This document shows positions 27,323 through 28,621 of a DNA stretch of 64,000 bases, one piece after another. Each line of letters starts with the position of its first letter. The stretch's first letter is position 1. Below the pieces are notes generated by a model. The model had not been told where the DNA came from, did not search any database, and worked only from the letters and a program-made list of their open reading frames with translations. Both the position numbers and the translations under genes were made by a program. This DNA comes from Aplysia californica (lineage: Eukaryota): contig NW_004797419.1 in NCBI RefSeq assembly GCF_000002075.1, positions 741,487-805,486 on the forward strand. The letters run 5' to 3'.

Positions 27323-27929
27323 CCCATCTTGTTATGTACTATCATTGGTATTGTTTAACCACTCTGAGGAGGCTTTATTCGTATTTTTTTGGTGATGCAT
27401 TGTAAAATATCGATATATGCCCTTTTTACTTTTTACATTATCGTTCGACGATTACGAAACGAAAGTTGGTAATGGCGGCAGCGTTTGGACTGTGCTGAAA
27501 AGGCAGTTTCGAAAATTGTCATGTGGTTTTGGTAACTTCAGACAAATGCTGTTTATTAATTATACTGTAGTGTTTATATATCTGACGAACTTGGGGAAGG
27601 AGTGCAAGAAATTTCCTTCAATTTCGCACTGGGGTTGGGAAGGGTGTGTAGGTTTAGTTTTCAAAGGCCACTTGAGTCTGAGAATAGCACAAGCGGGCCT
27701 TTTGGCTAGATCTATTCTCACCCGGTGTGCCTTCACCGTGATAGGCCAACCAAAGCAGCATTCACCGTAAACAAACGTTCCAGCGCTCTTGTATTGAAAG
27801 CGTGCAATTTTTTTTGGGGGGGAGGGAGAGGAGTAGAGAACTTCCGGGCAAAACAAAATGGCGACAATAGCCGAAGCATCTTTGTAGATGACCAAATTGA
27901 TTTAGATCTAGGCTTACTAAACTTTTGCG

Positions 27930-28439
27930 GGGAGGACTTCCGTAACGAGCGACCACTGTGAGACAGCAGAATTGAGGGAAGGACTGCCCGGGTTCCGTAA
28001 TGAGCGACCACCCCATCAAACACAAATAAAGAAAAGGCCTAACCCTAGCCCTAACCCTAACCCGGAAGGACTTCCGTAACGAGCGACCACCCCATCAAAC
28101 ACAATAAAGAAGAGGCCTAGACCTAACCCTAACCCTAACCCTAACCCCTACCCCTACCCCAAGCCCTCAATTCTGCTCTGTCTCATAGTGGTCACTCGTT
28201 ACGGAAGACCTCACCCTAACCCTAACCCTAACCCTAACCCTAACCCTACCCCTACCCCTACCCCTACATCTACCCCTACCCCTAGCCCTCAATTCTGCTC
28301 TGTCTCATAGTGGTCGCTCGTTGTTGCGGAAGTCCTCCCGAATTGAGAGCTAGATCTAGGGCAGGGGGTAGGGTTAGGGTTCTAAGGCCTCTTCTTTATT
28401 GTGTTTGATGGGGTGGTCGCTCGTTATGGAAGTCCTCCC
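27930..28439. mobile_element. three nested copies of a small MITE with a (CCCTAA)n core, ~27-bp TIR and 8-bp TSD
   Basis: TIR GG(G/A)AGGACTTCCGTAACGAGCGACCAC; outer 27930-28439, middle 27977-28339, inner 28064-28214. Confidence 0.88.
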
Positions 28440-28621
28440 CTTTTGGATTTTAACATCATTTTTTATCTTTGTTTTGTCAATTTGATCGTCCCCACCGATA
28501 GACGGTATTCAGAAAGAGAGTGCAAGAGAGAGAGGGGAGAAGGTCTTGCGAGAACTTACAGGCGAAACAAAATGGCGACCCGTGTTATTCGGCTCAATTC
28601 GAAAAGTGAAAAGGCCATATA

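Follow-up and report, generated by a model that had tools for sequence, protein, structure and literature searches.

The locus described here raises the question of why three copies of one small element, each with a telomere-like tract, should lie one inside another in the DNA of Aplysia californica: whether the element seeks out its own copies, hops locally or is guided by its telomere-like repeats, as had been proposed from the sequence, or whether a broader preference brings the copies together. Our preferred reading, to which we give a probability of roughly two in three, is that three MITE copies were likely inserted successively by the transposase of an intact 2.6-kb Merlin element, into a spot that likely attracts many DNA transposons. 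In this text, the window refers to the whole stretch of 64,000 nt that was analysed.

The original prediction described one element nested at three levels, with the outer copy at 27930-28439, the middle copy at 27977-28339 and the inner copy at 28064-28214, and the target-site duplications (TSDs) and a reading of the sequence confirm the structure at these coordinates (Table 1). The outer copy has an own length of 139 bp and interrupts a dispersed repeat, family H; once the insertion is removed, the restored empty site matches this family at 81% over 137 bp. Its two TSDs have 6/8 letters alike, and the target site reads CTTTTGTG in other copies of family H. The middle copy, with an own length of 204 bp, lies in the opposite orientation to the outer copy and has the same 8 bp on both sides. 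The inner copy (151 bp) is oriented as the middle copy and also has identical duplications; here the TSD is weaker evidence because the surrounding tract is periodic, and the right end of the copy is mutated (..CCTCAC). End identity among the three copies is 0.82-0.86. A 23-mer from the terminal inverted repeat (TIR) has four matches in the window, all within the nest, versus none in 100 shuffles.

Table 1. Parts of the nest and of its host repeat, in window positions
Feature	Positions	Strand	Remarks
Host repeat family H, left part	27680..27929	.	Interrupted by outer copy; start approximate; blastn
Outer copy, left TSD CTTTTGCG	27922..27929	+	
Outer copy, B end: 27-bp TIR and B arm through first GAATTGAG	27930..27976	-	
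Middle copy, left TSD GAATTGAG	27969..27976	+	Recurrent B-arm insertion site
Middle copy, A end: TIR with 8-bp internal insertion, A arm, start of telomere-like tract	27977..28063	+	
Inner copy, left TSD CCTAACCC	28056..28063	+	Within periodic tract
Inner copy, complete 151-bp MITE: TIR, A arm, (CCCTAA/CCCTAC)n core, B arm, TIR	28064..28214	+	
Inner copy, right TSD (28215-28222), then remainder of middle copy: tract, B arm, TIR	28215..28339	+	
Middle copy, right TSD GAATTGAG	28340..28347	+	
Outer copy, remainder: short tract with TAGATCTA word, A arm, TIR	28348..28439	-	
Outer copy, right TSD CTTTTGGA	28440..28447	+	Contig and sequence reading
Host repeat family H, right part	28440..28620	.	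End approximate; blastn 79-92% to many loci

The element is a non-autonomous Merlin (IS1016-type) MITE. It is short (mostly about 110-240 bp, and 108-298 bp among 45 TSD-checked copies) and non-coding, with TIRs, a TSD and a high copy number. Genome-wide, the TIR 23-mer has 867 exact matches (control, 0), and the 27-mer identifies 3,046 ends within three mismatches, which corresponds to about 1,500 copies or more. Two further small repeat families seem to carry a captured Merlin end fragment and to have spread it as a composite (loci L143, L144, L145, L174, L175 and L239; L059, L141, L150 and L252), so counts of lone TIRs are inflated. The TSD is 8 bp long: it is perfect at this length in 19/57 paired copies (77 loci), and has at most one mismatch in 31/57, and a perfect TSD of 7, 9 or 10 bp occurs in none of the 57. 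The target 8-mers are weakly A/T-centred (48 non-nested sites).

A profile search of the genome with PF12762 gave 70 matches, and 11 of the 30 loci returned contained a TIR-like match. An autonomous partner with the same TIR (L119:4344-6942, on scaffold C1701) is complete at 2,599 bp and flanked on both sides by the TSD TCACCGAT; as in the MITE, its TIR is 27 bp long and starts with GG. Its intact open reading frame of 328 aa has DDE_Tnp_IS1595 (PF12762) as its only Pfam match (E 1.4e-18; 67.8 bits vs a cut-off of 27). An intact DDE triad is assigned to D174, D235 and E272, in the motifs VDEAKFG, YSDCF and NTIES. No Zn_Tnp_IS1595 domain was found by Pfam at E values up to 1, and a cluster of cysteines at residues 51-83 is visible without a Pfam match. 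A second copy (L120) has 97.4% DNA identity, and the element is intact, young and autonomous. The MITE and the partner have their TIRs and first 49 bp in common (86-90%), and the tract and B arm of the MITE resemble a decayed stretch within the partner near its 3' end (2310-2397; 69-77%), which is either an older element end or an old nested MITE. Judged by the common TIR, first 49 bp and TSD length, the predicted transposase of the partner would mobilise the MITE.

The GG ends and 8-bp TSDs had been taken to fit either Merlin or Mutator. The partner settles the first part of this proposal, and the second part fails: Mutator elements have a partner with a MULE transposase and mostly 9-bp TSDs, and here the partner has no MULE match and only 1/57 copies has a 9-bp TSD with at most one mismatch. 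We also considered a second Merlin element (L127:2556-5571) as a closer parent of the MITE. Its TIR starts with GGCACTACTTGG, its TSD is CTCTTCTT, and its transposase has about 34% identity to that of the partner; it is a different Merlin family lodged in the A arm of a MITE. The MITE family is well defined and belongs to the known Merlin group, and it may already have a name in Repbase or Dfam.

The frequency of nesting was measured by searching the genome for two TIRs in the same direction within 200 bp, and all 40 matches were inspected. Thirteen show a nested junction directly, with TSD support, and represent 12 events. We discounted the remaining 27: 16 are read-through into a neighbour or broken end, 6 lack a checkable TSD, 3 are tandem or internal duplications and 2 are composites that involve another repeat. 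Four more TSD-supported nests were found at other loci, one of them with 6/8 TSD letters alike, for a total of 16 events at 14 loci, of which 13 are MITE in MITE; the counts of nests, like those of neighbours below, are small and were sorted by eye. The random expectation is 0.16-0.20 matches, based on 2,109 12-mers (control 87) and 4,485 9-mers (control 2,017) with the genome size taken as 927 Mb or, gaps excluded, as an assumed 740 Mb. The 13 matches are therefore 64-80 times the random number, and the 10 that remain once the two from the window and one with a long-type host are removed are 49-62 times that number. The original prediction would have failed if nesting were no more frequent than copy number implies, and nesting lies well above that level (about 50-80 times). 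Its recurrence across the genome, in 16 TSD-supported events, excludes chance and misassembly.

Across the genome at least about 1% of the family is nested, and in a sample of 92 pairs the share is 3-4% (3-4 pairs). With 1-3.5% of about 1,500 copies nested, 0.15-1.8 triple nests are predicted, and we see a single linear triple as well as a host (C17) that carries two inserts; the nest is an expected outcome of hot-spot insertion. The 15 nests inspected for orientation have no bias (6 same, 9 opposite). One of the 13 direct junctions (L146:1526-1664, on scaffold C62) adjoins the host TIR, and its TSD is imperfect, with filler of about 7 bp; it is possibly a repaired earlier excision.

Within the host copies, the 13 MITE-in-MITE nests are unevenly placed, with three in the tract, three within the A arm or bordering it, and seven in the 25-bp B arm (p 0.01). 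One 8-bp position, the CTCAATTC site of the B arm, is common to 4/13 nests (p 0.0004 under a uniform model). This site ranks 2nd to 6th of 137-158 by the target matrix, and its recurrence exceeds what the weak matrix predicts (p 0.0005-0.005). The four cases are not alike in inner subfamily, orientation or host subfamily, which makes a single composite dimer, copied as a unit, an unlikely explanation of the site.

The sequence next to copies gives a similar picture. A pattern of back-to-back TIRs has 43 matches genome-wide, and the loci were inspected except for three far pairs; we excluded 11 matches, of which 5 were read-through, 4 were composites, 1 was a sibling pair within a host and 1 a tandem duplication. 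Of the 43 matches, 28 are direct neighbours within 170 bp vs 0.46-0.57 expected, an excess of 49-61 times. At 170-375 bp there are four direct matches (6-7 times random), and at 400-1000 bp there are four neighbours in 99 kb of fetched loci. The drop beyond 170 bp is ten-fold (p 8e-7), and plain exponential decay with distance fits poorly (bootstrap p 0.013). A spacing with two peaks, at about 50 and 140 bp, was not significant against a uniform distribution over 0-170 bp (scan p 0.06-0.23; KS p 0.23). The side-by-side excess is about that of nesting, so new copies are drawn to the flanks of a resident copy about as strongly as to its interior.

Foreign elements use the same places. Seventeen of 92 paired copies are longer than 262 bp, and by eye these comprise 10 foreign insertions, 2 self-insertions, 3 long derivatives and 2 expanded cores, so that foreign insertions in the MITE are five times more frequent than self-insertions (10/92 vs 2/92). 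The second Merlin family, with its different TIR, entered the MITE arm with an 8-bp TSD of its own, and family H and the MITE nest in each other in both directions. The strong self-targeting that had been suggested is not supported as specific to self, in that adjacent copies and foreign families are enriched equally or more.

Family H, which spans approximately 27680-28620 in the window and is also seen at L024, L068 and L224, is a high-copy repeat of about 500 bp with GG ends, internal ATTCTCACCC inverted repeats, AAAACAAAATGGCG motifs and, in L024, an apparent TSD of 8-9 bp. The depth of its contig is greater than 10,000. The nest had been placed in a promoter region, and this setting is not supported: its flanks are this dispersed repeat, without a demonstrated promoter. 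Words on either side of the nest resemble what we take to be YY1 and ETS motifs, and these belong to family H.

The surroundings of family copies are also rich in CTAGATCTAG tracts. Around intact ends, the density of CTAGATCTAG falls from 3.0 per kb in the nearest 100 bp to 2.2 at 100-200 bp, 1.2 at 200-400 bp and 0.5 at 700-1000 bp (flanks that meet another family end were skipped), vs a genome-wide density of 0.07-0.09 per kb (66,604 sites). A CTAGATCTAG site occurs within 200 bp of 20/51 TSD-checked copies vs 4.9% of window positions, and 31/51 have none within this distance. Of the empty sites, 6/48 overlap AGATCT or TCTAGA, and the TAGATCTA word lies inside 11/45 copies.

We interpret these observations as successive, independent insertions into small common hot spots that would be marked by CTAGATCTAG tracts. 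The hot spots are probably a few hundred bases wide and of accessible chromatin. The transposase of the 2.6-kb Merlin, which has the same ends, would move the MITE copies, and the concentration of nested insertions at the CTCAATTC site in the B arm may come from a weak preference for A/T-centred 8-mers. The distribution of surviving insertions may also reflect purifying selection elsewhere. A Merlin family with both an intact autonomous element and a high-copy MITE makes target choice testable in cells.

An alternative is that the resident TIR itself recruits insertions, with bound transposase or a host factor that opens or tethers about 170 bp on each side and a preferred offset near 50 bp. 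The TIR contains ACTTCCGT, which resembles what we presume to be an ETS-factor site. Besides the ten-fold fall of neighbours beyond 170 bp and the seven of 13 nests in the B arm, the alternative has in its favour that 9/13 nests lie 39-57 bp from the host end (p 0.011, post hoc) and that 8/29 outside gaps are 43-57 bp long, but the latter cluster is not significant after scan correction (p 0.06-0.23). The 170-bp drop, the 39-57-bp offset and the recurrence of the CTCAATTC site together suggest that a resident copy may help to position new insertions. However, foreign families in the MITE outnumber self (10 vs 2 of 92), and a general recruiter would therefore be needed rather than a Merlin-specific one; the family also enters family H and CTAGATCTAG tracts that have no TIR, as with the empty sites at AGATCT/TCTAGA. 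On balance, we consider recruitment by the TIR rather unlikely, and its fuller form unlikely, namely that each copy is its own landing pad, where a TIR-recruited factor opens about 170 bp to several families and Merlin inserts about 50 bp from the resident end. Were the fuller form true, copies would seed nests and spread G4-forming telomere-like tracts autocatalytically, and it would be the first description of target choice for a Merlin transposase. Evidence that the TIR creates the hot spot would make the nest more important.

Local hopping, in which a copy excises and lands again close by while the sister chromatid serves as the template to repair the donor site, would account for the strong clustering at short range and would leave near-identical neighbours. 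The neighbours are not sister copies: end identity reaches 95% in 0/12 complete adjacent pairs, the median identity of adjacent pairs is 0.81 vs 0.84 for 990 random pairs, and every pair member is more similar to some copy at another place; the pairs of the window are at 0.82-0.86. A single pair (C561) looks alike, but it also has a common flank and reads as a tandem duplication. Local hopping, which had been offered together with self-targeting, is thus very unlikely.

Guidance by telomere-repeat-binding proteins or by G-quadruplexes on the (CCCTAA)n core was likewise put forward for the nest, and the inner copy does sit in the tract. A canonical G4-like motif occurs in 33/45 copies, and the tract often hosts foreign elements. 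However, insertions are not concentrated in the repeat. A perfect telomere-like dimer lies within 6 bp of only 2/2,109 intact ends, both inside family copies (the adjacency pattern is degenerate; seven of its nine matches are unrelated), although 7,440 such dimers are available and more than half of a 75-dimer sample could not be tied to a family end. Telomere-like flanks occur at 5/183 sampled ends (125 loci, with 8 loci left out that had no usable family end at the anchor), and four of the five are nests. The tract makes up about half of the interior, yet contains 3/13 nests (p 0.03; 0.10 counting one boundary case), and in 40/45 cores the longest uninterrupted run of pure CCCTAA is no more than two units. 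We regard such guidance as highly improbable. The telomere-like core is cargo copied with the element, not a target.

As cargo, the core does spread, with the family as a major carrier of telomere-like sequence: in a sample from scaffolds C1-C4, at least 32/75 CCCTAM dimers lie within 200 bp inward of a family end. Of the suggestion that such elements seed and enlarge interstitial telomeric sequence in a promoter region, this upholds the part that the family distributes telomere-like tracts across the genome; the promoter part falls with the flanks described above. In one old MITE copy (L018:1822-2768, on scaffold C5), telomere-like sequence reaches about 930 bp through tandem expansion of the tract and A arm, and this enlargement, within a long Merlin derivative, is by tandem duplication, not nesting. 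The spread of degenerate telomere-like sequence as transposon cargo is relevant wherever interstitial signals of this kind are interpreted as remnants of chromosome fusions.

That the nest is an assembly artefact or a local tandem duplication of one copy is scarcely credible: the region is repetitive and, among the contig pieces listed (32 of 2,871), none spans the whole nest or bridges the left junctions or the inner copy (positions 28033-28294 were passed over as repetitive), but the TSDs are exact, the three copies are diagnostically different, 14 further TSD-supported nests occur at other places in the genome, and two right-hand junctions recur with 0 differences in independent assemblies, that from the middle to the outer copy (28295-28412) in contig X12 of a second sample and that from the outer copy to the flank (28409-28661) in the short-read contig X1.

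Merlin elements are DDE transposons related to IS1016/IS1595, with 5'-GG TIRs of 24-462 bp and TSDs of 8 or 9 bp (Feschotte 2004, as summarised in PMC8101967). The family described here agrees with these in its GG ends, 27-bp TIR, 8-bp TSD without strong consensus and DDE_Tnp_IS1595 domain, and also in the lack of a Pfam match to Zn_Tnp_IS1595 and in the presence of internal tandem repeats; several Merlin families hold such repeats, and Merlin has been suggested to spread them (PMC8101967). Unlike in the Merlin families described there, the tandem repeat is telomere-like and is carried on a MITE of about 150 bp with at least 1,500 copies; the string "telomer" has no occurrence in PMC8101967, and the passages used here do not describe nesting. 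Among the titles and beginnings of abstracts searched, none concerned nesting in Merlin or a Merlin MITE whose core is telomere-like. Repeats carried on MITEs have been tabulated (PMC6947457), and targeting tied to open chromatin and transcription has been reviewed (PMC7337890).

Multimers and self-insertion are known for rice and maize MITEs (Tourist, Castaway, Gaijin and Ditto; Jiang and Wessler 2001, via PMC5172404). As here, copies become nested or adjacent by independent insertions, and some families self-insert while others are targeted by many families; in contrast, the present family belongs to another superfamily and to an animal genome, and its nested share is 1-4% vs more than 10% multimers in rice (PMC5172404). 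P-element dimers in Drosophila have been explained by double insertion at hot spots (PMC5932611), and they resemble our case in that a site preference lies behind the clustering and independent events occur at the same strong sites. They have one common TSD, whereas the Merlin MITEs lie up to 170 bp apart or inside each other. SaTars are non-autonomous MULEs that target microsatellites and form non-nested arrays (PMC5907723); both they and the Merlin MITE are small non-autonomous DNA elements clustered with simple repeats, but the Merlin MITE nests, and its own repeat tract is not targeted.

Two other features of the window were observed. On the minus strand at 29240-30520 is a broken transposase-like gene with stops and frame changes, which ends, after a Lys/Glu-rich stretch, in a PHD-like cluster of cysteines (weak Pfam PHD matches, below cut-off). 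It contains the motif HTSHLTQPLD, which we take to be typical of pogo/DDE_1 elements. At 41389-42608 is an array of A/T-rich units of about 265 bp with GATTTAAATCA palindromes.
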